A DNA stretch of 64,000 bases. It comes from Chrysiogenia bacterium (GTDB lineage: Bacteria > Acidobacteriota > Aminicenantia > UBA2199). A model generated the notes under the pieces. It was not told where the DNA came from. It saw nothing but the letters and a program-made list of their open reading frames with translations, and searched no databases. Position numbers and translations under genes: made by a program. The stretch covers positions 524,974-588,973 of the forward strand of contig JBDRQC010000004.1 in assembly GCA_043826505.1 (NCBI GenBank). The letters run 5' to 3'. Each line of letters starts with the position of its first letter. Within the stretch, counting starts at the first letter, position 1. Positions 1 to 42,185 of the stretch are shown here, piece after piece.

Positions 1-83
1 CACCAGAAGATTTTCAATTATTTCCAAACCGAGACGGAAAACACGGACGACTAAGCAGCGCTTTTCTCTTTCTAAAATAAAAT

Positions 84-629: not shown

Positions 630-1808
630 TTAAAAGATATAGCGGAAACCCAGCAGCAGTTTGTGGTGATTTTCAAACGGACGGTCCTCAGTGATCACCG
701 GGGCGCGCAATTCGCCGAAGATCGAACCGATCGAATCGTCGGAGCGGAAGAGGTTGACCCCCAGTTCACCGACCAGGTCGATGCCGCCCTTGCGACCAAC
801 CCGTTCCTTGGTGCTGAAACCCAGACCGCCGGCCACGTAAGCCGGTCCGGCGTGCAGGTTCAGCAGGGCGTTGCCCATGAAGAAAGACTTCCAGGGATCG
901 CCCTTGACCGGAATGCCGCCGCCCAGAGAAAGGATAAAATCCAACTTGTCGAACACGAGATTGTACAAAATACCGGCCCGGGCCCAGAACATGCCCGTGT
1001 AGGTTCCCTTTAAAAGTCCGGGACCGCCCTCAATCAGGAAATGAAGCGGATTCCTCTTTTCAACTATCGGAGCCGCGACCGGAGCGGGTTCAAGCACCTT
1101 GACCATGGCTTCGCAAGGATTGGTCGATTTCATGGCATACTGGCCTTCAACGACCGCGATAACCTGGTACTCGCCGACATTGTCCAGGGTGAGCTCCTCC
1201 GAACAGTTCTCGGGGGTAAGTTCCATGGTCTTGATGACCGCGCCGGCGGCATCGGTGACCGTGACCGTGGTTTTTACGGCATTCTCCGATCCGCACATAT
1301 CGATCTTGATCGCATCACCGAGCACGACTTCGGCCGGGGAAACATTCAGAACGCAAACCGGTGCCGGGACTTCGGTCATATTTTTGAGCGAGATGTTGCC
1401 GCAGATCTTGGGAACAATGAACTCATAGAGCTTTCCGTCCCTGAAAATGGTGAAATTGTAGGCGACGATCGGCTTTTTCCCGGCCCAGACCACATCTTTC
1501 TTGACCTGGACCTTTCTGCCTTTCTTGAACAGCATCCATTGCAGGCCGTCGCCGGGGTTCAATTCCACGGTTTGGACATCGGCCTTTTGGATCTGTTCGA
1601 GAAAAGCGAATACCAGGTCGCCATTGCCGGCTTCTTCAAAGCCCATCTTGACTTCACCGGCCTTGTCCAGGGCGATGATCTTCAGGTCGGCAGGTTGCAG
1701 GTCACGGCTTTTATAGAACGGGTGCTGCCCCAGCCGGCTGACTTTTTCAACAGCCTGAACGCTTAATAACAAACAAAAAATAAGCATTAAAAAAATAATT
1801 TTTTTCAT
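630..1808 (-). CDS. outer-membrane beta-barrel-like protein (hypothetical)
   Basis: N-terminal signal peptide MKKIIFLMLIFCLLLSVQA; C-terminus ends ...LLLGFRYIF (aromatic terminal residue typical of OMPs). Confidence 0.5.
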   Translation of the reverse strand: MKKIIFLMLIFCLLLSVQAVEKVSRLGQHPFYKSRDLQPADLKIIALDKAGEVKMGFEEAGNGDLVFAFLEQIQKADVQTVELNPGDGLQWMLFKKGRKVQVKKDVVWAGKKPIVAYNFTIFRDGKLYEFIVPKICGNISLKNMTEVPAPVCVLNVSPAEVVLGDAIKIDMCGSENAVKTTVTVTDAAGAVIKTMELTPENCSEELTLDNVGEYQVIAVVEGQYAMKSTNPCEAMVKVLEPAPVAAPIVEKRNPLHFLIEGGPGLLKGTYTGMFWARAGILYNLVFDKLDFILSLGGGIPVKGDPWKSFFMGNALLNLHAGPAYVAGGLGFSTKERVGRKGGIDLVGELGVNLFRSDDSIGSIFGELRAPVITEDRPFENHHKLLLGFRYIF

Positions 1809-8571: not shown

Positions 8572-11500
8572 TCATTTCACCATTTCCAGAAGCACCGCTA
8601 CCGCTTTTTCCAACTGCTGGTCGCGGCCGGCGGCGACGACCAACGGTTCGTTTTTCACGACAAAATCGGGGACGGTTTCCCGGTTTTCCAGCCAGTGGCC
8701 CTGGCCATCCTGGGCGCTCACCGGGACCATGCCCCACATGGTGGCGCCGTCCTGCAGCCTTTCCCAGCCCGCGAAGCTGCAGGTTCCCGGCGTGGGCATG
8801 CCGATGGTCTTGCCGATGCCGAGCTCCTGGTAGCCGCAGGCGAAGCAGTGGCCGTCGCTGTAATTCGCCTCGTTGAACATGGCCACGGTGGGCCTGGTCC
8901 AGCGGAAGGAGGGCTCATAGCCCAATGAGCGCTTTTCGGTGCGATAGTCGAGGAATTTGCTGCCGCTGAAGAACATGGCCAGATCGGCGACCAGGTCGCC
9001 GCCGCCATTGAAGCGGGTATCGACGACCACACCCTTGCGATCGAGGTATTTGCCCATCATCTGTTCGTAGACATCGCGGTAGGGACCGTCGCCCATGCCT
9101 GGTATGTGCACGTAGCCCAACTGCCCCTGGCTCAGCTTGTCGACCTCCTCCTCGTTCTTCCTGACCCAGCGCTTGTACAGAAGAGCATACTCATCGTTAA
9201 ACTTAATGGGTTTGAGCGAAACCTGCCGCCTGGTTTTCGTCAGTGGATCAAAAACTTGCAGCAGCGTGAACCTGCCGGCCTTGCGGTTCAGGTAAGCGGC
9301 GCTGTCGCGGTCGGCGGCGACCGTCTCGCCGTCGATCTGTTCGATGATCATCCCGGCTTCAATTTTAATGCCTGCCTTGTCAAGGGGACCGCCGCGGATG
9401 ATCTCGGCGATGCGAATTCCGTCACCATTGTAATCGTAATCCATGAATATGCCCAACGAGGCGGTGTCATCACCGTCGCTGCGCTGCGGATTGTATCGGG
9501 CACCGGAATGGGAACTGTTCAACTCGCCCAGCATTTCCGAAAGCAGGTCGGTGAATTCGTAACCGCTGCCAATGCCGGGCAGATACTTCAGGTAGGCGCT
9601 GCGCAGTCCCTGCCAATCGGCGCCGTGAAAGCCAGGCGAATAAAACCCGGTCCGCGTGCGCTGCCATACGTGCTCGAACATGTACTTCCTTTCCGCGGCC
9701 TGGTCCAATTTCATTTCGCCCTTGATCTCAACGGCCTGGCGCTTGCCCTTTTCCAGGTCGATCCTGGAGATCTTGCCGTCGGCGAGCAGGAAGAGGTTCT
9801 TCATCTCCTTGTCCCACTGCAGCCGGCCTCTCTCGGCATCGAGCTGCATCACCATTTTCGCTTCCTTGCTGCGCAGCTTGCTGCTCCACAGGTTGAGCCC
9901 CTTTTCGAAGCTGGCCAGGTAGTAGAGGGTTTCGCCGTCCTTGGAGAGAACAGCATCGTCCAGCGAGGAAGAGTGCAGGGTCAGCCGCGCCTTGCGTTCG
10001 TGCAGGCCGTCCCAGGCGAACGTAAGCGCGGCCGGTTTCTCACCGACGCCAGCCTGCTTGTCCTTCTTGCCCTTCTTGCTTTTGGCCGCGGCCTCCTCCT
10101 TTTCCTTTTTCTCCTTCTCCTCAATCGCCTGCAACAATGCGAAATCCTCCTTGCTCAGGTTGAAGCGCTCCCAGGCCTCGCGGCTGAAGAACATGGAATA
10201 TACATCGGCCTGCCTGTCGCCGCTGTTGGCCAGGCTGCGCAGGCCGTCGCGGGTACTGAACCACAGCATCTGTTTGCCCGCGTTCACCCATTTGGGCCGG
10301 TAATCGCTGTGGCCGCTCTGGGTGAGGTTGATCATTTTGCTTTTGCCGTCGGCCGCGATCAGAACCACATCCCCCACCATAAGTATCGGACAATACTCCA
10401 CCAGGAGCCACTTGCTGTCCGGACTCCAGGAAAAATACTGGTCGCCGTCGGACATGTAGTAGAGCTCGTCCGGAGTGAGCAGGACGCGTGTTTGCCTGCT
10501 GGCCAGGTTGTAGACCGCGAGCGAGGCGCGATTCTGGATGAACGCGACCTCCTTGCCGTCCGGAGAATACTGCGGCTGGTAGTTGTTGTTGCCGTTGCTG
10601 AACAATGGTTCTTCTTTGAGCACCGTGGCTGCGTAAAAGTAAGGCTCCTCCTGGCGTGTTTTTTTGGTTTGATAGATCTGCCATTTGCCCTGGCGTTCGC
10701 TGGCGTAAAGGATGGCTTCGCCATCAGGCGAGAAGCTGGCAAAGCGCTCCTGTTCGGGAGTATCGGTGATGCGCTTGGTGACTCCGCCCTCGACCGCCGA
10801 GACGAATACCTCGCCGCGCACCACATATACGACCTCCTTGCCATTGGCCGACACATCCATCTCCCTGGCATTGCCGCTGATGGCCAGGAACAGGTCGTTG
10901 TTGCGCTTGTCCTCGCTGCGGATGGTCACGGCGACCTGCCGCGGCTGGCCGCCCGGCGACATGGTATAGAGGTCGCCGTCATAACCGAAGCAAAGGGTGC
11001 CGTCACTGCTGCTGCTCAGGAAACGCACCGGGAACTGCTTGAAAGATGTCAGCTGGCGGTTCTGCCGGGGATTTTTCAGCTCGAGTTTATGAACGTTGAA
11101 GTTGCCGCTCTCCTCGCTCAGGTAGCAAATGCTTTGATCTTTATCAGCGAAAACCGGATTGCGGTCCTCGCCCTTGAAGACGGTGATCAGCCGTTGCTCG
11201 CCGCTGCTGCTGTCGTAAAGCCAAATGTCACGGGTTATGGACGAAACGTGGTGCTTGCGATATTCGTTTTCGCCCCCTTTCTTGTCGTGGTATACCATTC
11301 GCCGCCCGTCCCGGCTTACCTGGACGGCTTCGGCAGGAAAGGTCCATACCATGGCGACGCGGCCACCCTTGGCCGGAACGCTGTAGAGTTCAGGCTGCGA
11401 TGCGCTGGGAAACTGGCGGTGGCTGGCCAGGTCCTGGCGCTGAGCGCCGAAAAGCACCGCCTGGTCATCGGCGCTGAATGTGTAGGGGTACTCGTTGCGC

Positions 11501-23201: not shown

Positions 23202-23337
23202 CTCCTCCTCCCCGGAACTCAGGAACTCAGGGACGGACTGTTAATCTGTGTATCCTTTTGCCGCCCAGCGTTTGTGATTCTGGTCATCAATTTTAAAAAA
23301 GCTATAATGAAAGACCTGACACCATTGCCTCTCCGAA

Positions 23338-23766
23338 TTACTTTTCCATTGACACGATAAGCAATTTATCCTGCACCGGTCTGATCTTGAAAGTAAGCAC
23401 AATGCCTTTCCGGAAAGGCCACAATTCCTTGAACTTTATTCCGGATTGAAGAGTGGGGAATCTCCTTTCAAGATAGAAAGCGAGTTCTTTTTCCTGCAAT
23501 TCTCCTGCCAGTACCCGCACGTTAATAAAATTTGCCCGGTACAGAGTATATTCGTAGTCTCCCTCTGTTACCCTTACCAGCGGCAGCAGGTTGCTAAGCT
23601 GTGCCGTGACTTTGATCTGGAACTCATTCTCACTGTACCAGGGGATAAGGTTTTCCCTGGTGTAAGCGTTGACCTGTGCGGCCATCTCCGGCATGACAGT
23701 GATTTTTGATTCGGCAATAACCGCAAGCGAACAGAATAACAGGGTAATGGCCAAACTTTTTCTCAT
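23338..23766 (-). CDS. hypothetical secreted protein
   Basis: Signal peptide MRKSLAITLLFCSLAVIA; about 20 bp before its TAA stop on the plus strand, i.e. 5 nt downstream in gene sense, sits a copy of the array motif. Confidence 0.5.
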   Translation of the reverse strand: MRKSLAITLLFCSLAVIAESKITVMPEMAAQVNAYTRENLIPWYSENEFQIKVTAQLSNLLPLVRVTEGDYEYTLYRANFINVRVLAGELQEKELAFYLERRFPTLQSGIKFKELWPFRKGIVLTFKIRPVQDKLLIVSMEK

Positions 23767-23927
23767 ATGTTCTCCTCATGAACAAGCGGGATCAAATCTC
23801 ATTTTCAGAAATTTGCGCCGATCTCAAGCATCGCCCCAGTTCCTTCTATCCCGGAAACTTCATTTCTATTTTTTTCCTGAATTCACAAAGTCAAGCACCA
23901 GCCCCGATATTCCCGAGGCCCCCCGCC

Positions 23928-25138: not shown

Positions 25139-25513
25139 TCAGGCATCGCCGGTGGGCGTTACCGTGGCGGCCTCGACCATCAGCACCAGGGTGCGCTCGG
25201 GGGCGCGCGGCCGGTGGCTCACACCCCTGGGAACCACGATCCCCTGCCTGGGAGTGAGTTCCACTGTACGATCCTTAAAATCGATAAACAGTATGCCTTC
25301 CACTACATAAAAGAATTCATCTTCCTTCTCATGTTGGTGCCAGTGGAAATCGCCCTTGAATATGCCCAGGCGCACCAGGGATTCGTTGACCTGGCACAGG
25401 GTCTGGTTGAACCAATTATAGTCACACGCCTTTTCTATAGCCCCGATATCGATCTTCTCCAATGCCCCGAACTTGATGTCGGTCTGGATCACATATTTCG
25501 TGTCTGGATTCAT
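25139..25513 (-). CDS. cupin domain protein
   Basis: Start MNPDTKY (ATG 25513); FHWHQHEKEDEFFYVVEG + VVPRGVSH cupin motifs. Confidence 0.7.
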   Translation of the reverse strand: MNPDTKYVIQTDIKFGALEKIDIGAIEKACDYNWFNQTLCQVNESLVRLGIFKGDFHWHQHEKEDEFFYVVEGILFIDFKDRTVELTPRQGIVVPRGVSHRPRAPERTLVLMVEAATVTPTGDA

Positions 25514-25548
25514 GTGTCCTCCTTTTTGGATTTTGGCTCCCGGCGCTC

Positions 25549-26199
25549 TCACCTTTTCAGCCAGGGGCAGACTTCCAGGCAGACCAGGCAGTTGTCGTCT
25601 CCCCGGCATGCCTTGACGTCCAGCACATCTTCCCGGCGTTCGGGGTGATCGGCAAAAGACACCAATCTTAAGGCGCCATACGGACATTGATCGACACACA
25701 GCGTGCAGTCGCCGCAGCGGTTCGCCAGCGGCTCGCCGGGCTGCAGGTCCAGGTTGGTCAGAACGGCGATCCAGCGGTGGACCGGGCCATACTCGGGCGA
25801 GACGATAAGCAGCGAGCGCCCCTGCCAGCCGAGCCCCGCCGCCTTGGCCAGCACCTTGAGCGACAGCAGCCCCAGGCGCCTGACCGGATCGAGCTCATCT
25901 TCAGGATGGATGATCAGGGCGAGATCTTCCTGCTTCTCCAGGTAAGCAGAAATCTGCAGCGCGGCTTTCTCCAAAAAGAAGTTTACATCGACGCCAGTCG
26001 CCTTCTCCCCCAGCTTGTTCAGCTGCGCTCCCAGGACGATCGCGTAGCGGAACTTGCCCGTCAACCCGGCCGGATCGCCGCCCATGCCTGCCGGCACTTC
26101 CCGCCGCCGCTCCAGATCGGCCACGCCGAACAGGTCCACTCCCATTTTACAGGCAAGGGCTCTCAATTCCGCTGTATGATCCATATCTTCTATCTCCAA
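25549..26199 (-). CDS. 4Fe-4S dicluster domain protein (epoxyqueuosine-reductase/RDH-like C-terminal region)
   Basis: CGDCTLCVDQCPYGAL and CLVCLEVCPW ferredoxin-type motifs. Confidence 0.55.
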   Translation of the reverse strand: MEIEDMDHTAELRALACKMGVDLFGVADLERRREVPAGMGGDPAGLTGKFRYAIVLGAQLNKLGEKATGVDVNFFLEKAALQISAYLEKQEDLALIIHPEDELDPVRRLGLLSLKVLAKAAGLGWQGRSLLIVSPEYGPVHRWIAVLTNLDLQPGEPLANRCGDCTLCVDQCPYGALRLVSFADHPERREDVLDVKACRGDDNCLVCLEVCPWLKR

Positions 26200-26236
26200 T
26201 GTCTAATATTGAGACCTGACCCCGTTGGCCCATTCC

Positions 26237-26932
26237 TCAATAGGCAACCACCTTTCCTTCAACAAGCCGGATGGGCGGATAGCCGGACATGGGATAAGAA
26301 TAATGAGTCTGCGTCATCTTCCAGTTTCCTTCTTTCTTGATGAGCACCATTGAAATCCGGATCGGCCAGACAAATGTTTCTCCCAATTCGGTGTGCTTGA
26401 GCACCATGCCGGCATCCCAGATGGCGGTAAAAAGCTTGATCCGAGCCGTTTTGGCCGCGTCTTTTTCCAGTTCGGCCAATCGTCTCAAGCAGCGGGCCAT
26501 GTTCTCTTCATTGCTCCTGCCAAAACCGTTTCCCGGGCTCTTGGTCACCGTCGCCGACATTGCCACGATCGCCACGTCCGGCGTTAAAATTCTAATATCG
26601 GGGTTATCCACATCCGCTTCCATTACGCCCCACCTCTTCCAGTCATTCGCGAATAACTCTTCCGCCTTGTCTATTCCCGTCTGCCATTCACCTGTATGGG
26701 GAAAGACACCGTTGGTACCCATGACACAAACATCATCGGTCATCAATTCCCGGACCCATTCCCCAACCTTTGACAGATCCCTTCCAGTATATCCATCCTG
26801 GAATTTCTTCAGGAATTCCTTCACTTCATCGCGTACTTTCCGGCCCGGATCGTTTTCCTGGCCGTTTAAACGCACCTGAAAGCAAGTCAGGACAAGAATA
26901 CTAAGAAGGATTGCCTTGCCTTTACATAGCAT
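26237..26932 (-). CDS. secreted SnoaL-like/DUF4440 family protein
   Basis: Signal peptide; NTF2-like length and pattern; stop codon at 26237-26239 with motif A at 26211-26230, i.e. 6 nt downstream of it in gene sense. Confidence 0.45.
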   Translation of the reverse strand: MLCKGKAILLSILVLTCFQVRLNGQENDPGRKVRDEVKEFLKKFQDGYTGRDLSKVGEWVRELMTDDVCVMGTNGVFPHTGEWQTGIDKAEELFANDWKRWGVMEADVDNPDIRILTPDVAIVAMSATVTKSPGNGFGRSNEENMARCLRRLAELEKDAAKTARIKLFTAIWDAGMVLKHTELGETFVWPIRISMVLIKKEGNWKMTQTHYSYPMSGYPPIRLVEGKVVAY

Positions 26933-27084
26933 TGTTCAACCTCCATTTTCAAACTATGGGCAGAAGGCGCTTTTTTTGATTTTTGCACCTTTGATAGGCC
27001 CTGTAAAATCTATAGTTCCTTGGTTCCTGGTTTTTCATTATTACTTCATCCCAGGAATCATTTGTAAAAACGTAAGACCTGACC

Positions 27085-27450
27085 TCATGTGTCAATATTT
27101 CCCTGATCTTTCGCTTTCCTCTTTGCACTTTTTTTCCATTTCGGTTTCGGAAGCGGAAGTTCTTGCGCGGTAATCCTGATCAAGCCGCTGAGCCATTCCT
27201 GGTCTTCATATGCATCTCCTATTAAAAAGCACAACTTGGCTCCGGGATAGGGCGGGGCTTCAACAACATCGCCTATATATGCCCTGCCGCCTGCGGTCGG
27301 CTTCACAAAAAGCTTGTTGTCACAAACCAGGGCCACGACTTTATTGTTGCAATATATTACATACTCGCCGAACATTTGCCTGTGAGAAATAAATCCGGCA
27401 TTTTCCATTTGCCTTGCGATGAATTCAATGAAAATTTTATCAGATGCCAA
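27085..27450 (-). CDS. TfoX N-terminal domain-containing protein
   Basis: IEFIARQMENAGFISHRQMFGEYVIYCNNKVVALVCDNKLFVK matches TfoX/Sxy N-domain; TGA stop lies inside motif A. Confidence 0.65.
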   Translation of the reverse strand: MASDKIFIEFIARQMENAGFISHRQMFGEYVIYCNNKVVALVCDNKLFVKPTAGGRAYIGDVVEAPPYPGAKLCFLIGDAYEDQEWLSGLIRITAQELPLPKPKWKKSAKRKAKDQGNIDT

Positions 27451-28119: not shown

Positions 28120-28329
28120 CCAGTCACTCCCTGCCGGCCCCAAAATTTAAAACCTGTCATTTCAAGACCTGACCCTCATGCCCCGGTTTGCCTCGACTTC
28201 TCCGCCAGCCGATAGATGTCGCAGCCGCCGCAATACAGCCCACAATAGCCGTCGAGTTTTATTTCGTCCATTTAATTCCTCTATCGCAAATTGTCCAAAG
28301 TCAAGCACCTTCCCCAAAGGCCGATTTTC

Positions 28330-29596: not shown

Positions 29597-29858
29597 TTTT
29601 TACCTCCCCTCTAATCCGCCCGTATCCAGGTGGACAATCTCTAATCCTTTTTTTAAGCGTAATTGCAATAAAATTCAAGCTTTTTTTTCTGTTTCTGTTT
29701 TTTTTAAATCTACCCGTATGATTTTCATTTCATTCAATCAAAGTCACAAAGTCAAGTCCCCAAAGCCTGGTTCCGTCCCCAAAGTCTGGTTTTTCACTTT
29801 GCCCAAACCAATTGTCATGAAAGACCTGACACCGATGCCCAGTCAAACACAACTGTGC

Positions 29859-30269
29859 CTAGCCCTGCCTGCCATCCTCCTCGATCACCTTCCAGCCTTC
29901 GGTCCAATCCGCATACACCTGCCAGAATTTGATCTTATCATTCTCCACAACGGCTTTCCATGCGGCTGGCATCTCGATCCGGTTTTCAGGAACAAGCCCG
30001 CGTTTCCCGTTGTAGGTTCCGCAAGCCGACCCAAAAACAGCCACCATGCTTCCCTGGCGGAAAATATTCTCGACCTTGATCGTAAAGTCGGGAAACATGC
30101 GGAAATACTCGCCCCATCCTTTCGTCATCACATCCAGACCGGACGTCACCTTGCCGCTGGAATCAACAAAAACGTGATCCTCCGTCATAAGGCTGGAAAG
30201 TCGGGTAACGTCGCCCTGGTTGATTGCGGAGATGAAAGCCATCACTACATCAGTCTCGTTTGACTTCAT
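29859..30269 (-). CDS. nuclear transport factor 2 (SnoaL-like) family protein
   Basis: 136 aa; AFISAINQGDVTRLSSLMTEDHVFVDSSGK pattern typical of SnoaL/DUF4440. Confidence 0.6.
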   Translation of the reverse strand: MKSNETDVVMAFISAINQGDVTRLSSLMTEDHVFVDSSGKVTSGLDVMTKGWGEYFRMFPDFTIKVENIFRQGSMVAVFGSACGTYNGKRGLVPENRIEMPAAWKAVVENDKIKFWQVYADWTEGWKVIEEDGRQG

Positions 30270-30627
30270 CCGCTCCTCCCTTTTGCCGTAACTATTTCTT
30301 ATCTAAATCCTATCCCGCTACCCTGAACATTCATGCGAGCAGCAAATGGGTATCCGCTCAATTTCCACATTCACAAATGGAACTGTCATTTCAAGACCTG
30401 ATCCTCATGCCAGAAGAATATAAATGCCCCTTGTATTAGCAGGAATATTACGAATTTCTGTTTGCGGTCTAAATTCAGCAATTTGCTTTATAAATCTACA
30501 TTTGGACGTTGACATTAGACATTCTCCTTAACTATCATTGCTAACACTCTCTTTTGCAATGCCCCCACTTGAAGCCAAATATTAAAATAAAAAAATTTAT
30601 TATTCAAAGACTAGCCCTACTGTCTTC

Positions 30628-30984
30628 CTAAAAAAATCGCGCAATGATTCCCCAAATGAGTAATCCAAGCCCAACAAAAGTTACAAACATATTCACGGAG
30701 GTTATCCAATCTGGCACAGAATTAATATCGGCTTTTGTTGGATGGATAGAGGTGCGATCAAGACGTCGTATGTTTTCTTGAAGTCTTTCTTCTTTAATCA
30801 TATTTTCTCGAATACGGTCCCAGCGAGCCTTTGCGGATTCCATTGCATAATTGTGCATCACTCCCCATGACCAAAAAGAAAGGATTACAACAATCACACA
30901 TAACCAAAATAAAACAGGGTGCCCGGTCCCATAGAACATTATTCCTGCAAGCACGCTTAATATTAAACTTACAAAGCCACCCAT
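30628..30984 (-). CDS. small hypothetical membrane protein
   Basis: 118 aa, 2 N-terminal and 1 C-terminal TM helices, AT-rich. Confidence 0.45.
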   Translation of the reverse strand: MGGFVSLILSVLAGIMFYGTGHPVLFWLCVIVVILSFWSWGVMHNYAMESAKARWDRIRENMIKEERLQENIRRLDRTSIHPTKADINSVPDWITSVNMFVTFVGLGLLIWGIIARFF

Positions 30985-31300
30985 ACTTACTCCTTTGGAG
31001 GCATGATGGTCAGAACTAGAAAAATTAGAACCTTATAATTCAAGACATGACCCTCATGCCTTACTAACTACTTGACAGTGACCTTCTAATGGGCGTCCCC
31101 AATTCCCAATGATGACTGCTCCTGCAAGCCGTCACCGAAAGTCCTGCCTTCATCTACCATGCAGCTTCTCATGGCACACAATGGGCGTCCCTTTTGCCTC
31201 CTGTACGTTTGCCCAAGAGAGAGAAAAAGAGACGGGTCAAACTTCAGTAAACCGAACCCACTGAAAACGCAAGTCAAGAATAGCGTATACGTCGAGTTGC

Positions 31301-33741: not shown

Positions 33742-33937
33742 TAGACCGGTGGTAACCTGGATTTCTCAACCGCCTTTTATTTTTCCTTTATTCTATTCTC
33801 TCTATCTACCCTATAGGCGCCAATTTTTGGTGAATCTCCGGTGTTGCACAAGTGTTTATGAAATTTCCACGTTTCCAGACACTGATAATCCCCCCACTAA
33901 AGAATATTCAAGTGATCAACATGACAAAGTCAAGAAG

Positions 33938-35545: not shown

Positions 35546-35991
35546 AGGTTAATTAATATTTACTCCATCTCAGTTCGATTTTTGACATATACTAGATTAT
35601 AATGAAGAATATCTGAAAATCAAGCGCTGCTCAATTTTTTTTGTTGATATTGTAATATTTATTTTTTACTGTAATTGATTTCATTGAAGGCTTCTTCAAA
35701 TCATGGAAAAGAAAATGAGAATCGTGTCTTGAATTAACAGGTCGATCAATAACCATTTTCACGAATATATTTGTCATTTCAAGACATTATACTAATACCC
35801 CATGCCCCCAATCTTCCCTATTAAGAGAAAGCTTGGTGCCAGGTCTTGCATTATCGCTTCTGCCAATGCCCAGAACAAGAATATGTTTTCAATTAGATAA
35901 GAAAACCCATTTTGTCATAATGTAAGACCTGACAGCATTTCTTCCTGTTCTTCCCTAGACGTACTTTCACTTTAAGAATACATTTATTATT

Positions 35992-37056
35992 TTATAACTT
36001 AATTGTTTTCTCATAAACAAATGCAACACTATACTTAGCCCTCGTAATTGCAACGTATAAACCCGCTTTAGTTCTGGGTTTAAGTTGTGATGAATCCTTT
36101 TTTGCCAGATATTCACAAATAGGTTTATTTGGAAAAATGAGTACGCGTTCAAAAGTCCTGCCTTTTGCCATTCCAAAATTAATTGATGGTAGCTCCATTG
36201 TGGAAGTCCTAATCGAATCTTTTAAAACAATCGGTTTAAATTTATTATAATAGTGAGGGACCTCACATTGCTTTATCACGAAAACACCATCATGCCCAGT
36301 AACATCAGTATTCTTTGAAATTGTGGGGATTAGCTCAGGATATAAATGGTCTGCAAAATCACAAATTGTTTGATTGCAACGAAAGCTCTCATTCTTCTGT
36401 ATAACCTCACAAAATCCTTTTTTTTTCCAGTCATTGAACAACTTAATGATATTATATCCTTTATATTTCTTGTTTTTGGGGGAACAATTTGTAAAATAAG
36501 TTGATTGTCTACAATCCCCTACAATTATTATATCAATCTTAGAACGAACTAATAGTTCTAAGAGATCAAAATCGTATCCAGCCATATCTTGTGACTCATC
36601 AATGAAAATTTGATCGAAAATTTGCTCAAGCCGTTCAATTACGAGTCCCTTAGATAGTTCATTGCACACACATGCAAATTCAGCGATCTTATCAGTGTAT
36701 ATCAATTCTCCGTTTTGAAGATAATATACTGCAGTATTCTTTCTAGGGACTCCTATGACAGACCTGCCTTCAATAAAAGAGATATTACTGATCCTCTTGA
36801 TGTCGTATAAAAAATTTTGATAAGGGCGTACACATTCTTGAAGTAGAAAGGAATACCAGGTAAGTATATGAAGATTTTTCGGAATACAACTGACTCTCTG
36901 TGAAATGAAATCATCAACCTGTTGCAAGTTTTCAATAGTATATGTGGTTATTAATGTTCGTTTGTTAATATTTTGAAGCGCCGCTTCAACTAAAATAGTC
37001 GTTTTTCTTGCACCCGCAGATGCAATTACTATTTTCTTACAAGCTGAAAGCATCAA
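35992..37056 (-). CDS. gajB: Gabija GajB, UvrD-like helicase
   Basis: IVIASAGARKTTILVE (Walker A), IFIDESQDM (motif II), GLYVAITRAKYSVAFV (UvrD C-terminal motif); overlaps gajA by 20 nt. Confidence 0.8.
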   Translation of the reverse strand: MMLSACKKIVIASAGARKTTILVEAALQNINKRTLITTYTIENLQQVDDFISQRVSCIPKNLHILTWYSFLLQECVRPYQNFLYDIKRISNISFIEGRSVIGVPRKNTAVYYLQNGELIYTDKIAEFACVCNELSKGLVIERLEQIFDQIFIDESQDMAGYDFDLLELLVRSKIDIIIVGDCRQSTYFTNCSPKNKKYKGYNIIKLFNDWKKKGFCEVIQKNESFRCNQTICDFADHLYPELIPTISKNTDVTGHDGVFVIKQCEVPHYYNKFKPIVLKDSIRTSTMELPSINFGMAKGRTFERVLIFPNKPICEYLAKKDSSQLKPRTKAGLYVAITRAKYSVAFVYEKTIKL

Positions 37057-38653
37057 GAATATATTGGGGGACTTTTATTGGAGAAGAATAATTGAAGAGC
37101 TTCAAAGCACACTCAGTCTTATTTTTTTCCTTACGCATGAATGACATCATTGATTCTTTATCTAAATCATTCCTAGAAAATATGGTGTTTAGTAAGCCAA
37201 GTTCATTAACCTTGGCAATTTGGCATTCTAACGTGGGATATTTATCATCCTTGTCATAACAAATTTTTATATTGGATTTTTTTAAATAATCACCATATCT
37301 TAATTCAATATTTTTTCTAAAGTCCCCATCATTATCAATAACAACCACTACTTTCTTTTCAAGCAAAGCCGCAATCTCAAGAAAACGCTTGAAGGAGAGA
37401 CTCCTGACAGATATCACATCGAAATCATCTTCGATTGGGAGTTTTCCATTCTTCTGAAAATATGCCTTTTGTACTATCAACTCATCAGAAGGACCTTCAA
37501 CGAGAATCGGCCGCTTCGAAATAATCAGTCGCAATGTGTCGTACCCCGGCAGCTTTTGAAAATAATCTTTTGTGCTATTTGAAAGATTTTTCAAAGAAGT
37601 AACCTTCTGTCCTTCTGCTAGAAGAATGACTTTATCAATACCAAGTTTGTTTAAAACAAAAGTGCTATGCGTAGTCAAAAGAACATGCTTTGACATGCAT
37701 TTTTCTTGAATTTTACTGATAAGATTATTCATTGTTGAATAAGATAAATGATTCTCAGGTTCCTCAATAAGTATAAGATGCGCATCTGTTGCCTTACGAT
37801 CAAGTGCAATTAGCATTTTCAATATACTTTGATCACCCTTCCCAATATGCTGAAAAGGTATTTCATCAAGATACGAAGTCAAATTGGTTTCCCAATTCGC
37901 CTTCTGGGTAATATCAACTGACACTTGAAGCTGTTTGTCAGAAATTTTTCCCTTCTCAGAAGCAAGCCTCGCATTAATCTTAGCAATTGCTCCTTGGTTG
38001 CTGAAGGTTTCTTTCAATCTACGATATTCCACTGCCAATTCAGCGCGTTCTTTAAGATCAAGAGAATCGTCAATTATTTTTTGAATATAATAGTCCGAAC
38101 CATATTGAAGCCGGATTGTAGTTGTGTCAATTAGTGTAACATTCATCCCAAGGCTTCGTTTTGTTATAGTCTTATAAGCAAAAGAAAACCATTGTACTTT
38201 GTAATACTCAGTTGGAATGTTTTTTATCTTACTTAAGTCGGAGATATAACTCAGGTATTCATCGGAAAAATCCTGGTTAAATTCAATTAAAAGTCTAATT
38301 CCCGGCGAATTGGTTTTTTTAGAGTTATTTGTACCCTTTAGTGCGGCAAATTCAGGATCATCCGTAAAATAAAGCTCAATCCAAATTTTTGGTGGGGCAA
38401 CTTTATTACCAGCGTTTAGTGCTGCAAAGTATTCTGAAACACACTCCCTATTAAAAAGATATGGAGAAAGTTCAAAGGCTATATTTCTTCCAAATAAATC
38501 TTGAGTAAGGCAAAGGTTGATTGCTTCTATTAATGTCGACTTCCCCGTTTCATTGTCTCCAACAAGTAAGGTCAACTGATTAGACAAATCTATTTCCAGA
38601 TGACGGAAGCATTTAAAGTTATGAACAATTATTTTATGAAAAATCATTCCCAT
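37037..38653 (-). CDS. gajA: Gabija GajA, OLD-family ABC ATPase-TOPRIM endonuclease
   Basis: N-term IIVHNFKCFRHLEIDL...LLVGDNETGKSTLIEAI (AAA_15/AAA_21), ILIEEPENHLS (Walker B/D-loop), C-term TOPRIM ILVEGPSDE...VVVIDNDGD. Confidence 0.85.
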   Translation of the reverse strand: MGMIFHKIIVHNFKCFRHLEIDLSNQLTLLVGDNETGKSTLIEAINLCLTQDLFGRNIAFELSPYLFNRECVSEYFAALNAGNKVAPPKIWIELYFTDDPEFAALKGTNNSKKTNSPGIRLLIEFNQDFSDEYLSYISDLSKIKNIPTEYYKVQWFSFAYKTITKRSLGMNVTLIDTTTIRLQYGSDYYIQKIIDDSLDLKERAELAVEYRRLKETFSNQGAIAKINARLASEKGKISDKQLQVSVDITQKANWETNLTSYLDEIPFQHIGKGDQSILKMLIALDRKATDAHLILIEEPENHLSYSTMNNLISKIQEKCMSKHVLLTTHSTFVLNKLGIDKVILLAEGQKVTSLKNLSNSTKDYFQKLPGYDTLRLIISKRPILVEGPSDELIVQKAYFQKNGKLPIEDDFDVISVRSLSFKRFLEIAALLEKKVVVVIDNDGDFRKNIELRYGDYLKKSNIKICYDKDDKYPTLECQIAKVNELGLLNTIFSRNDLDKESMMSFMRKEKNKTECALKLFNYSSPIKVPQYILDAFSL

Positions 38654-38947
38654 CTATAATCCCCTTCATTATTAATATAAAATCATTCAATTTCAGTAAA
38701 AACACTTAATTGTTTAAAACTTCTATTAGAAATTTCTTACCCATTTAGAATCAAGGGAAAATTCGGTGCCAGGTCTTTCATTAATACTTTTTGGCCAAAT
38801 CAAAATCAAGAGAATGGTTTCAAAAAGAGATTTAAAAATACAATTTTATTAGAAAAAAATATCTGCCCCATTTCATTCAAACAAATCTTAAAAATCAAAA
38901 CATTTGAAATTCATCTCAATCATACATTTGGCAGAATTCTAGCATAA

Positions 38948-39334
38948 TCAGACTTTCATCAGCAGATTCCTCGTACTTTTTAGGACTTGATCTAGTTTGA
39001 TTCTTTTTCTTTTAATCATCACATCTGTCCAAGTGCCCGGTTCCAACCAATAGCTACCTTTTAAAAAGCATCTTTCCGCCAGATCGCCATCAATATCACG
39101 AAGTGGGATGCTCGAATCATGCCAGAGTTTCGCTAAAGCCAACTCTCTTTTACGGTCTCGTTTTTTACCAGAATCCAAATCCTTAATGTATGCCTTTGTT
39201 TCATTAAGAGCTGCATAAAGAGCATATAACGCTTGGTCTATTCTTTCATTTCTATATTTATGACGATCTCTGATCAAGCCAAGTGCCGCTAAAAGTCGAT
39301 CAAAAATAGCAAATGTAACTTCATTCGGTGCCAT
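38948..39334 (-). CDS. hypothetical protein (orphan between Gabija and Mrr)
   Basis: 128-aa ORF, charged, no motif recognised. Confidence 0.45.
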   Translation of the reverse strand: MAPNEVTFAIFDRLLAALGLIRDRHKYRNERIDQALYALYAALNETKAYIKDLDSGKKRDRKRELALAKLWHDSSIPLRDIDGDLAERCFLKGSYWLEPGTWTDVMIKRKRIKLDQVLKSTRNLLMKV

Positions 39335-39598
39335 ATAACCTCCTAATAATTATCATAATCTAAAATAAAGAATTAACATTTTTTATCCTAGCTCCAATAA
39401 TGGCCTGGGGAAGCTTCTCAGGAGAGAGAGAATTCCTTTTGCATCCATAGATTGATTAAAAAATAAATTATAAGTTGTGGCGGACAAGAAAGAAAATTCG
39501 GGCCAGGCCTTGAATTGAAAGATCAATCATTGATCGTATTAAAAAAAACTGTCATTTCAAAACCGGACTCCAAGCATTGGAAATAACTACTTTTTATG

Positions 39599-40528
39599 CT
39601 ATATACTTTCATCAAAATAATCCATATCGATCTTTTTCACAGGATAGAGCGATACTGTCGATACTCCAATATCATTCTCTATCATCAGGTTGGTGAGTTG
39701 CTCCCCATCAATTAAAACAATCTTGCTTCCAATCTGAGAGACATAATTTCTAGCTTCATTAGAGAATCGAGAGGTTGTAATGAATATACCTTTATTTGCT
39801 TTCTGAGCTTGAAGAGCTCCGGCAAACTGCATGACATCCGGTCTGCCAACTGAATTAGTATCCCATCGTTTCGCCTGGATGTAAACGACATCAAGCCCAA
39901 GTCTATCCTCCTTGATAATCCCATCAATACCGCCATCTCCACTTCTACCAATTGCTTTTCCAGCGTCAGCGCGTGAACCTCCATAACCCATCTTTACAAG
40001 CAATTCGACAACAGCACGCTCAAAAAAGGATGGCGAAGATTTTTTAAGTCTGGCAAGAAGTTCGTCTCCCAGCTCATCTCGCAAATTTTCATAGGCAGTT
40101 TCAAGTGCCTCTGATGGAGTAGCCGCTGAAATGTCGGGTGTACCATCCGAGGAACTTACTTTCTCACCTCTTCGCGTCCCCTTGAGTTGCTGGAACTCAA
40201 TAAATTCAGGATACTGTCTGAGAAGTTTTACATTGATCACTTTAGGCTGCTTTTTGAGGAGATCTTGCCCACGCGAAGTAATTTTAAAATAGCCCCTTCG
40301 CGTAGCTTCGAGCAGACCAGCTTTCTTCATATAAGTAGCCACCCAGCTAACTCTATTAACAAGGGTTGATTGAATACCGCTTGGAAGCATTTCTTTCATG
40401 TCCTCATCTGTCAAGTTCAATTCTTTCGCTAGAGCTTCAACGGCTTCTCCTGTTGATGTCTCATCGTTTTTCTTTCCTGCAAAACGGAGAACTGGCAACA
40501 TCAAACTTTGATAATCTGGAACAGCCAT
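39599..40528 (-). CDS. mrr: Mrr type IV (modification-dependent) restriction endonuclease
   Basis: N-terminal Mrr_N winged helix; catalytic core GGSRADAGKAIGRSGDGGIDGIIKEDRLGLDVVYIQAKRW (Mrr_cat D-(D/E)xK). Confidence 0.85.
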   Translation of the reverse strand: MAVPDYQSLMLPVLRFAGKKNDETSTGEAVEALAKELNLTDEDMKEMLPSGIQSTLVNRVSWVATYMKKAGLLEATRRGYFKITSRGQDLLKKQPKVINVKLLRQYPEFIEFQQLKGTRRGEKVSSSDGTPDISAATPSEALETAYENLRDELGDELLARLKKSSPSFFERAVVELLVKMGYGGSRADAGKAIGRSGDGGIDGIIKEDRLGLDVVYIQAKRWDTNSVGRPDVMQFAGALQAQKANKGIFITTSRFSNEARNYVSQIGSKIVLIDGEQLTNLMIENDIGVSTVSLYPVKKIDMDYFDESI

Positions 40529-40765
40529 GTGTTAATCTCCTTTTTCTCTCAATTAACCTTTTTTATGCTTGTTCGGATTATTTTTCAAGTGCTGGATTGA
40601 ATTCATTTTACAAGCTCCCGCCGGTGGCCTTTGTGAGCTTTTTCAGGGGAGGACGAATTCTCTCATTATCCATGCGGCGAATAAGAGAAAAGTATAAATA
40701 CTAAAAACAAAACAAGCAATAGGGAAAAATGTAGTATTGGGGATCTCGAATCACAGCGACTAGAG

Positions 40766-40793
40766 TTCAGTGTTAGTGATAGTGTTAGTGTTA
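40766..40793. repeat. tandem 7-bp heptad repeat (AGTGWTA/AGTGTTA)
   Basis: CAGTGTTAGTGATAGTGTTAGTGTTAGC; related copies at 42202-42229, 60214-60231, 62374-62391 and inverted GCGTGAC-type at 41215-41230, 60396-60416. Confidence 0.6.
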
Positions 40794-40820
40794 GCAGAAA
40801 AAGGCAATCTCTTTATGTAG

Positions 40821-40848
40821 GGGAGGGTCTGTGACCCTCCCGCATTTT
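40821..40848 (+). terminator. intrinsic-terminator-like hairpin
   Basis: GGAGGGTC-TGT-GACCCTCC perfect 8-bp stem followed by CGCATTTTT; no obvious upstream plus-strand gene, so function is uncertain (possible sRNA 3' end). Confidence 0.3.
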
Positions 40849-41039: not shown

Positions 41040-41215
41040 CCCTGCTTAAATTCCAAATACCAAGCACCAAATAACAAATAAGCACCAAAATCCAATAACC
41101 GAATGACCCAAACAAAGAAAGAAAAGGCAAAAGGGCTTTTGTTTCGAACATTGGAATTTGGAACTTGGATTTTGTTTGTTATTTGTAATTTGTGATTTGG
41201 AATTTCATTCTTCCT
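41040..41215. repeat. AT-rich imperfect palindrome built from CCAAAT/ATTTGG units; a second copy at about 60240-60395
   Basis: 41044-41130 is close to the reverse complement of 41135-41215; the same unit arrangement (TTGGAATTTGG...GGTGCTTATTT) recurs near 60300-60380. Confidence 0.55.
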
Positions 41216-41399: not shown

Positions 41400-42185
41400 A
41401 TGCCCGAAACCATCATGGAAAGCAAAGACTATAAAATGGCCGTGCTCATCGACGGCGACAACGCCCAGGCCTCGCTGCTGGCCAAGATGCTGGCCGAGGT
41501 CGGCAAGCACGGCTCGGTGACCATCCGCCGCATCTACGGCGACTGGACCACCTCCAACATGCACTCCTGGAAGGACGCCCTGCACAACTTCGCCGTGCAG
41601 CCCATCCAGCAGTTCCGCTACACCGTGGGCAAGAACGCCACCGACAGCGCCCTGATCATCGACGCCATGGACATCATGCACCGCAAGCTGGTCGAGGGTT
41701 TCTGCATCATCTCCTCGGACAGCGACTACACGCGCCTGGCCACGCGCATCCGCGAGGAGGGCTTCTTCGTCATGGGCATCGGCCAGAAGAAGACCCCCAA
41801 GTCGTTCGTCAACGGCTGCGACCTGTTCATCTACACCGAGAACCTCTCGCCGCGTCGCGAAAGCAAGCCGCGCCCGGAGCAGGGCCGCGGCCGCGGCGCC
41901 GGTAAGAAGGAAGAAGCGCAGCAGCCGCAACAGCCGCAGCCCCTCTACGCCGGCACCGACCCCATGCCGCTGCTGCGCGAGGCCTACGAGATGGTGGTGC
42001 AGGAGAACGGCTGGGCCAACCTGGGCCCCATGGGCAAGGCGCTGCTGCAGCTCGACCCCGGCTTCGACCCGCGCAGCTTCGGCCAGCGCCAGCTTTCATC
42101 GCTGATCAAATCGCTCCCCGATTTCGAGATCCGCCGCAGCGACGACCACTCGTCCACCGGCGTCTGGGTGCGCCTGAAAGAATAG
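41400..42185 (+). CDS. NYN (LabA-like) nuclease domain protein with C-terminal OST-HTH/LOTUS domain
   Basis: MAVLIDGDNA...IRRIYGDW...FCIISSDSDYTRLA (NYN); C-terminal LOTUS-like YEMVVQENGWANLGPMGKALLQLDPGFDPRSFG. Confidence 0.75.
   Translation: MPETIMESKDYKMAVLIDGDNAQASLLAKMLAEVGKHGSVTIRRIYGDWTTSNMHSWKDALHNFAVQPIQQFRYTVGKNATDSALIIDAMDIMHRKLVEGFCIISSDSDYTRLATRIREEGFFVMGIGQKKTPKSFVNGCDLFIYTENLSPRRESKPRPEQGRGRGAGKKEEAQQPQQPQPLYAGTDPMPLLREAYEMVVQENGWANLGPMGKALLQLDPGFDPRSFGQRQLSSLIKSLPDFEIRRSDDHSSTGVWVRLKE

Follow-up and report, generated by a model that had tools for sequence, protein, structure and literature searches.

The window considered here, 64,000 nucleotides of contig JBDRQC010000004.1 (positions 524,974 to 588,973; assembly GCA_043826505.1, Chrysiogenia bacterium, placed by GTDB in the Aminicenantia), raises the question of what kind of element a short motif is that recurs between unrelated genes, often close to their stop codons. 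A preliminary description of this DNA listed ten direct copies of about 28 bp and proposed a recombination site, an RNA-processing site or a 3' structural element. The motif is very probably the terminal arm, about 30 nt long, of miniature, non-autonomous palindromic elements that are tied to a Y1 (HUH) transposase of the RAYT/TIRYT type (RAYT, REP-associated tyrosine transposase). As a family it is new, yet it falls within a known kind of bacterial repeat and does not represent a new recombination system. It provides an ordinary explanation for a repeat that resembles a cassette site, and guards against annotation of the surrounding island as an integron-like array.

The 10-nt core of the motif, AAGACCTGAC, is found 11 times in the window when at most one mismatch is allowed, compared to 2.24 expected occurrences, and none of 100 dinucleotide-preserving shuffles reaches this number. 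An nhmmer profile built from the copies returns 14 significant matches, ten on the plus strand with E-values from 1e-6 to 3e-3 and four on the minus strand (Table 1). All ten copies of the preliminary description are present near the coordinates it gave, and its view of a genuine, non-random family with inverted-repeat character that adjoins ORF (open reading frame) ends is borne out. Its list was confined to direct copies, however, and at least four inverted copies were overlooked. The arm consensus is AAACTGTCATTTCAAGACCTGACCCTCATGCC. Likeness spans 28-33 nt per arm, well past the core, as the earlier account had supposed, and two sites match copies in other genomes along their entire 97 nt.

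Minus-strand copies sit 20-80 nt to the left of plus-strand copies, and three weaker inverted partners, at 27021-27046, 29783-29800 and 30999-31028, complete further pairs. Because of these inverted partners, six sites in the window are imperfect palindromes of 50-125 bp, referred to here as dimers; together with five solo or half copies the total comes to about 11 sites. When folded as single-stranded DNA, two of the dimers (30999-31061 and 35824-35947) lie far beyond shuffled sequences and the other dimers are degenerate. All copies are located in spacers or overlap stop codons only. The 14 profile matches are confined to 23.3-39.6 kb, the remaining 48 kb have none, and the chance of such clustering under random placement over intergenic DNA only is about 1e-4.

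Relatives of these sites are widespread. When one genome per species was scanned with a degenerate pattern, 12 contigs were returned, labelled as Candidatus Aminicenantes (4), Thermodesulfovibrionales (4, from one genome), Patescibacteria, Chrysiogenales and Leptolyngbyaceae, and an exact 21-mer scan of metagenome contigs found at least 120 loci, mostly in sediment and subsurface samples. A 21-mer scan of viral contigs gave no match. The resulting set of 132 related loci (12 from genomes and 120 from metagenomes, 713 kb in all; individual loci carry the prefix L) contains 313 arms by profile search, which read GGGGTCAGGTCTTGAA... and belong to two types, X and Y, with conserved mismatches. The related loci and the window together hold 112 inverted arm pairs, with discrete spacing classes of 24, 51, 56, 76, 112 and 143 nt. 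The outer palindrome ends are GGCATGA.../...TCATGCC or GRRAATTGGGG. The commonest class is a 79-bp core that consists of GGGTCAGGTCTTGAAATGACACATTTT, about 23 nt and AAAATGTGTCATTTCAAGACCTGACCC, and it occurs in 28 non-identical copies with unrelated flanks. Non-identical copies in differing flanks indicate mobility, a pattern typical of a dispersed mobile element and not of one conserved locus. Just 3 of about 100 distinct dimers in the related loci are found inside ORFs of at least 90 aa. Twelve sequences of the 51-spacing class were aligned. In their consensus fold, an outer stem of 15 bp is followed inwards by a conserved 3x3 internal loop and a small hairpin. No other sequences in this alignment have diverged as far as the window sites 35707-35804 and 39488-39582, both of which can be aligned to the class from end to end.

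The genes next to the arms are highly diverse, as revealed by all-against-all clustering of 704 ORFs from the related loci, and the most recurrent neighbour family is a 285-aa protein. It matches the Pfam family Y1_Tnp (IS200-like transposase) above cut-off. The member in L012 also exceeds the cut-off of 80 bits for the NCBIfam model NF047646, REP-associated tyrosine transposase, with 88.8 bits; those in L056 and L078 stay below it with 76.6 and 69.4 bits. H60 and H62, the two histidines of the HUH motif, do not vary among the aligned sequences, and the tyrosine of the R-Y-[IV]-x-x-N-P-V helix is retained in five of seven, namely in those that reach that far. The closest solved structure to the family profile is TnpA-REP of E. 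coli (4ER8, E 1e-6), and a structure search with a single sequence instead of the profile gave no match. The C-terminus resembles HTH_23/HTH_38, with E-values of 3e-4 to 2e-3 that are below the Pfam cut-offs.

Two loci show how gene and arms are arranged. In L012 (Candidatus Aminicenantes UBA2190), the transposase gene at 39-896 lies between inverted arms at 6-34 (minus strand) and 918-946 (plus strand), with gaps of 5 and 22 nt. In L056, the gene at 9420-10280 is similarly enclosed by arms at 9390-9414 (minus) and 10382-10409 (plus), with gaps of 6 and about 100 nt. The parent unit of the family, as seen in related genomes, is the 285-aa Y1 gene between two inverted arms, the so-called TIRtron arrangement. 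By tblastn, the gene or fragments of it are present in about 20 of the 132 loci and nearly always touch an arm; fragments abut arms in L007, L051, L061, L083 and others. The inner segment of the 51-spacing dimers (AACAGGTCGATCATTGACC...) is the very sequence found next to the stop codon of the transposase gene in L012, which identifies the dimers as derivatives that arose from the transposase-bearing unit by internal deletion. The solo arms are leftovers of decay or deletion of inverted dimers. The full chain from autonomous unit via deletion-derived dimers to solo relics is visible in uncultivated sediment bacteria.

The arms also serve as landing sites for another mobile element. An IS110-family insertion with one and the same foreign end sequence is found at the identical arm position, between AAGACCTGA and ACTTCCCATCTGAAA, in four different dimer copies (L025, L052, L058 and L059), and an IS110-family (DEDD) transposase ORF follows the junction in L025, L058 and L059. 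It looks as if this insertion sequence targets the repeat site-specifically. IS110-family elements are known to target REPs (PMC8450116). The repeated insertion at one arm position, together with the clustering of copies in a defence island, provides markers for the assembly of mosaic islands in metagenomes.

Among described systems, the TIRtrons come closest. As described by Di Nocera et al. (2013, PMC3733652), TIRtrons are RAYT-like genes flanked by long inverted repeats that encode TIRYT transposases; many TIRYT inverted repeats share the sequence GGGGWSAS, and copies exist as monomers, dimers and clusters. Most TIRYTs belong to Y1 subclass 2.1 and carry a C-terminal helix-turn-helix (HTH) domain of the Bac_DnaA_C, HTH_23 or HTH_28 type (Quentin et al. 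2018, PMC6006769). The family described here likewise has a RAYT-like Y1 gene, longer than classical RAYTs, that is flanked by long inverted repeats instead of GTAG-tagged hairpins; the HTH similarity at the C-terminus of its product is sub-threshold. Its arms start with GGGGTCAG, which fits GGGGWSAS, and they also occur as monomers, dimers and clusters. In the window, X-type arms read (A)GGGTCAG and match GGGGWSAS at 7 of 8 positions, and the inverted arms match it in part (35715-35742, GAATCGTG; 39496-39523, GGGCCAGG). Differences from the TIRtrons are the many miniature dimers of fixed spacing, on at least 120 metagenome contigs, and the occurrence in uncultivated sediment lineages (Candidatus Aminicenantes and others). 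The inverted-repeat families of TIRYTs are called 'moderately abundant' in PMC3733652, and subclass 2.1 had no REP-like repeats in the survey by Quentin et al. (PMC6006769). Against these surveys, with their modest repeat families or none, the present family would be a well-populated example of the poorly studied TIRYT/TIRtron branch.

REPs and REPINs, palindromic repeats located outside genes, occur on either side of RAYT genes, whose products presumably mobilise them (Nunvar 2010; Bertels and Rainey 2011, PMC3116915; PMC5581495; TnpA-REP structure, PDB 4ER8, PMC3479197). The present elements resemble them as short extragenic repeats that form inverted doublets with long hairpins and flank a single Y1 gene, which matches the NCBIfam RAYT model and has TnpA-REP as its best solved relative. 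The insertion of IS110-family elements into the repeats is a further likeness. Individual arms, in contrast, are not palindromic. A GTCA...TGAC stem within the single arm, pointed out in the preliminary description, is a 4-bp pairing and the sole internal one; it is absent from Y-type (GATAATTC) and ATAATG-type arms, and the sequence surrounding solo arms is no more stably folded than its shuffles. A GT[AG]G (or CGTC) tag is also absent from AAACTGTCATTTCAAGACCTGACCCTCATGCC and its complement. Lacking both the palindrome and the GTAG tag, single arms do not qualify as classical REPs. The transposase exceeds RAYTs by about 120 aa, its many fragments are more insertion-sequence-like than expected of a domesticated single-copy gene, and the copies in the window are clustered in one island instead of being dispersed. 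The earlier dismissal of the REP class was nevertheless premature, as the motif belongs among the inverted repeats associated with RAYT/TIRYT enzymes. On features shared with the published accounts, and not on phylogeny, it may be filed as the arm of a new REPIN-like repeat family of the TIRYT/TIRtron type.

The mode of transposition can be sketched by analogy with TnpA of IS200/IS605 elements and TnpA-REP. Dimers would fold into hairpins where DNA is single-stranded at the replication fork, and the transposase would work on these hairpins in trans; cutting and rejoining at the hairpin foot could allow copies to spread into intergenic DNA. The mismatches between X and Y arms would render the hairpins of the two strands non-equivalent, and the putative helix-turn-helix tail may recognise the invariant TTCAAGACCTGAC core. 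The term 'recombination site' used in the preliminary description is loosely right in this sense, since a Y1 (HUH) tyrosine transposase presumably acts on the arms; in its cassette or attC sense it fails, with neither RYYYAAC/GTTRRRY boxes in the arms nor an integrase among the 60 window ORFs searched or in 131 of the 132 loci. Arm and dimer sequences provide substrates for asking how a RAYT-like enzyme with a putative HTH tail recognises inverted repeats that have no hairpin of their own.

Several observations weigh against the assignment to a Y1-linked mobile family. Transposition itself was not observed, and mobility is read from sequence. No Y1 gene was detected either in the window (by tblastn) or in the roughly 10 kb of additional flank from the same organism, and the transposase link is seen in other genomes only. 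The search of this flank revealed no further arms either, and REP-type repeats are not usually confined in this way to a single island (16 kb, out of about 74 kb from the source organism). A hairpin of their own and a GTAG tag are both missing from single arms, and the taxonomic labels of the matching assembled genomes may include mis-binned contigs. The window copies are most likely relics, because they are decayed, being the most diverged in the family alignment, and have no transposase gene nearby. Some of them can still fold into strong hairpins, some provide genes with stop codons, and a deletion junction coincides with at least one (Table 1).

Table 1. Arms and dimers of the repeat family in the window (coordinates in nt; E, nhmmer E-value; kcal/mol and z refer to folding as single-stranded DNA)
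Feature	Position	Strand	Details
Solo arm, ATAATGAAAGACCTGACACC subtype	23299-23331	+	E 1.4e-6; 6 nt past stop of ORF 23338-23766; weak short partner at 23279-23292; weak local pairing only
Solo arm	26198-26231	+	E 9e-5; between stop of ORF 26237-26932 and start of ORF 25549-26199; no significant hairpin
Degenerate dimer	27021-27093	.	Inverted left arm 27021-27046, right arm 27062-27093; TGA 27085-27087 is the stop of the TfoX_N ORF
Solo arm, best copy, identical to family consensus	28151-28184	+	E 2.8e-6; 95-97% identity over 33-40 nt to L004, L007, L009, L010, L016 and others
Short dimer	29783-29840	.	Left arm about 29783-29800, right arm 29812-29840; 29784-29796 pairs with 29817-29830; 18 nt past stop of SnoaL ORF 29859-30269
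Right half of 51-spacing dimer	30355-30411	+	Inner segment and X-type arm 30381-30411; left half lost or degenerate; alignable to L004, L016 and L047, inner part included
Compact 63-nt dimer	30999-31061	.	Arms 30999-31028 and 31030-31061; 15 nt upstream of start of ORF 30628-30984; -11.5 kcal/mol, z -3.7, 0/200 shuffles equal; 82% identity to L120
Complete 98-nt dimer, 51-spacing subfamily, decayed	35707-35804	.	Y-type arm 35715-35742 (-), X-type arm 35769-35801 (+); matched end to end with L004, L044, L047, L010 and others
124-nt dimer, ATAATG subtype	35824-35947	.	Arms 35827-35859 (-) and 35913-35943 (+); about 48 nt past gajB stop; -21.2 kcal/mol, z -5.2, 0/200 shuffles equal
Solo inverted arm	38758-38790	-	E 2.2e-5; 105 nt upstream of gajA start; partner arm looked for, none found
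Decayed 95-nt dimer, 51-spacing subfamily	39488-39582	.	Arms 39496-39523 (-) and 39546-39578 (+); 17 nt past Mrr stop

A more far-reaching proposal, which appears unlikely, is that gene pairs bracketed by arms are cut and moved as composite units, and that the island is an integron-like array for gene capture and shuffling, able to move between phyla. It leans on the arms around GajA/B-like pairs (Gabija), which are found both here and in L050, and on solo arms at deletion junctions such as that at 28176-28271. Movement between phyla is suggested by the presence of the motif in assembled genomes labelled as Aminicenantes, Nitrospirota, Chrysiogenales, Cyanobacteria and Patescibacteria. If this proposal holds, a low-GC defence island would work in parallel to an integron and be driven by a single-strand HUH transposase.

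Mobile modules bounded by arms were also sought among recurrent gene clusters in the related loci. Clusters of AbiE and a 170-aa ORF recur, and they were ruled out as independent insertions because they represent syntenic copies of the same loci from different samples.

The small ORF at the junction just mentioned (28176-28271, minus strand, 31 aa, MDEIKLDGYCGLYCGGCDIYRLAEKSRQTGA) matches DUF3795 at positions 1-22 only, with an E-value of 0.008. It looks like the remnant of a DUF3795 gene that was cut off at the arm 28151-28184, which gives the ORF its stop codon.

The position of the arms at gene ends allows a different explanation, an RNA element that the host maintains by selection at the 3' ends of mRNAs, for example to terminate, stabilise or process transcripts, and that would be repeated for its function and not through mobility. 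In the window, a stop codon lies at a distance of 0-18 nt for seven of the ten X-type arms, and the orientation relative to transcription is the same for all ten. As stated in the preliminary description, both the TfoX_N ORF 27085-27450 and the 31-codon ORF 28176-28271 end at the TGA within the motif. The distance of 5-15 nt it gave for other stops applies to ORFs 23338 (6 nt) and 26237 (5 nt), but not to ORF 29859 (18 nt) or gajB (stop at 35992, about 48 nt). Two dimers form highly stable hairpins, and U-rich tracts, read from the sequence in the mRNA sense, follow several dimers, e.g., AAUUUUC and CAUUUUCUUUUCC. GTAG-type REPs are mostly found downstream of coding regions and are plausibly RNA elements, as reported in PMC3733652.

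This 3'-end preference is absent from the related loci, however, and the claimed enrichment at ORF 3' ends is thus not supported. In the related loci, the genes facing elements do so with 76 3' ends and 66 5' ends (p 0.45), and X-type arms considered alone face six 3' ends and four 5' ends. The spacers that hold dimers are tandem in 30 cases, convergent in 12 and divergent in seven. What the elements share is an extragenic position, without specificity for gene 3' ends. Because the genes of the island are co-directional, some gene ends at each of its spacers. Solo arms fold no better than shuffles, and neither arms nor dimers match any Rfam family. A terminator scan finds 21 terminator-like sites compared to 20.5 expected and does not flag the dimers, whose loops are too long for the consensus used. 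Linkage to a transposase already accounts for the repetition, and co-opted relic copies would be compatible with a 3'-end RNA role. As an explanation for the family, the RNA element is therefore quite improbable. Any effect on mRNA 3' ends is conjectural, as is the cause of the uniform arm polarity, which could result from transcription-linked selection or, equally, from a replication-strand bias of single-strand transposition; the two are confounded here. Throughout the window, the plus strand has a negative GC skew.

The inverted terminal arms, with a G-run at the start and a C-run at the end, and the presence of IS110- and IS21-family transposase genes in several related loci would also fit ordinary miniature inverted-repeat transposable elements (MITEs) moved by a DDE transposase, e.g., of these nearby families, with the Y1 gene as a mere frequent neighbour. 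This is very improbable. The IS110 copies break the arm at one fixed position and have different ends of their own; the arm is therefore an IS110 target and not a terminus. In L012 and L056 it is the Y1 gene that lies immediately between the arms, and the ends of that unit are preserved in the dimers. Direct target-site duplications were looked for beside 28 independent copies, and none was evident. A DDE-mobilised miniature element was rejected on these grounds, i.e., the use of the arm as IS110 target and the target-site duplications that were not seen.

Correia, ERIC and RUP elements are intergenic palindromic elements of about 60-190 bp that are derived from or dependent on transposases and can affect neighbouring transcripts. 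They are associated with DDE transposases or with no known enzyme, and target-site duplications are usual among them. No such duplications were seen in the present family, in contrast to these elements.

That the sites are attC-like, and the island a cassette array without integrase whose palindromes serve as folded single-stranded sites for an IntI-type tyrosine recombinase, is extremely unlikely: imperfect palindromes of similar length (50-125 bp) do follow small ORFs that are unrelated and point the same way, the GC content of the region is mixed, the X/Y mismatches recall the asymmetry of attC arms, and one related locus (L023) contains an IntI-like fragment, but the arms have no R boxes (RYYYAAC/GTTRRRY) and bracket Y1 transposase genes instead, near-identical dimers occur singly in many unrelated contexts and not only in arrays, no attI was seen, a Pfam search of 60 window ORFs (most, not all, of those of at least 90 aa) detected no tyrosine recombinase, tblastn with an IntI1 query had no match in the window, and the one IntI-like match in the 713 kb of related loci is separated by 3 kb from a solo arm and lies on the intI side opposite to the expected cassettes. 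An integron was rejected, as R boxes are missing and these searches gave no IntI in the window.

The fragment in L023 (7899-8276, minus strand) shares 45% identity with residues 172-328 of IntI1, with a 31-residue gap exactly at the IntI-specific extra segment, and lies near the contig end. It may be a degraded integron integrase, and its presence is probably coincidental.

The arms of the Y1-linked family are embedded in a region of low GC content, 28-49% compared to about 58% on both sides. The genes of this island bear no relation to one another, and all are encoded on the minus strand; they include Mrr, GajA, GajB, a hexapeptide transferase and a DegT aminotransferase, and SnoaL-like, PNPOx-like, TfoX_N, ferredoxin-like and cupin proteins. 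GajA is an OLD-type ATPase with a TOPRIM domain. A defence cluster occupies the part with the lowest GC content (28-38%), 35992-40528, and consists of GajB (35992-37056), GajA (37037-38653) and the Mrr restriction endonuclease (39599-40528). A NYN/OST-HTH protein, for which no existing record was found, is encoded at 41400-42185. A tRNA-linked island was considered and dropped, as neither tRNA nor tmRNA genes were found in the window.

Dimers in the related loci show two further kinds of variation. Short tandem reiterations of the outer 12-24 nt of the arm are found beside complete dimers in L071, L121, L087, L123, L085, L012 (1989-2045) and L092, and in the window at 29757-29795; in L085, for example, AAAAGAGCTTTGGGGTCAGGTCTT is present twice. 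They may record nested or abortive insertions. In the 56-spacing dimer (e.g., L015 compared to L020), the centre of about 23 nt is found in either orientation relative to the asymmetric ends GARCTTTGGGG and GCAAAAGAGGG, which suggests inversion between the perfect 28-nt arms.

A second repeat family, which reads GGTGCTTGACTTTGTGACTTT or CTCGGTGCTTGACTTCTTGACTTTGTC on the minus strand, contains a -35-like TTGACT. Its four exact copies in the window (23886-23895, 28296-28305, 29747-29756 and 33925-33934) all lie in the island, upstream of ORFs, and 15 more are present in related loci (L004, L006, L007, L009, L011, L012, L016, L047 and L130), some of them 20-30 nt upstream of an arm. This family may represent a portable promoter or another mobile repeat.

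Rfam yields no match at gathering thresholds across the whole window, and at E-values up to 1 over the island it gives three weak matches, all away from arms and dimers. The group II intron model D1-D4-2 matches over its full length at 31062-31151 (minus strand), with 32.1 bits against a gathering threshold of 36 and an E-value of 0.003, i.e., sub-threshold. The match directly abuts the dimer 30999-31061, and no reverse-transcriptase ORF is found nearby. Within 31064-31202, the stretches 31064-31101 and 31145-31202 share 92-97% identity with L047.

The non-coding segment 40611-41332, between the Mrr and NYN genes, holds several other repeats common to related loci. Its first part (40611-40837) shares about 80% identity with two places in L004 and with L130, 40870-41042 matches L004, and 41232-41332 matches L002 and L061. 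An AT-rich palindrome with 50-nt arms is located at 41048-41205. Two short Logan contigs from run SRR26275510 (L133 and L134) are 100% identical to the two ends of the window; the same organism is thus present in that run, whose short-read assembly of it is fragmented. The cupin-domain gene at 25139-25525 shares 80% nucleotide identity with part of L044, which itself carries a 51-spacing dimer.

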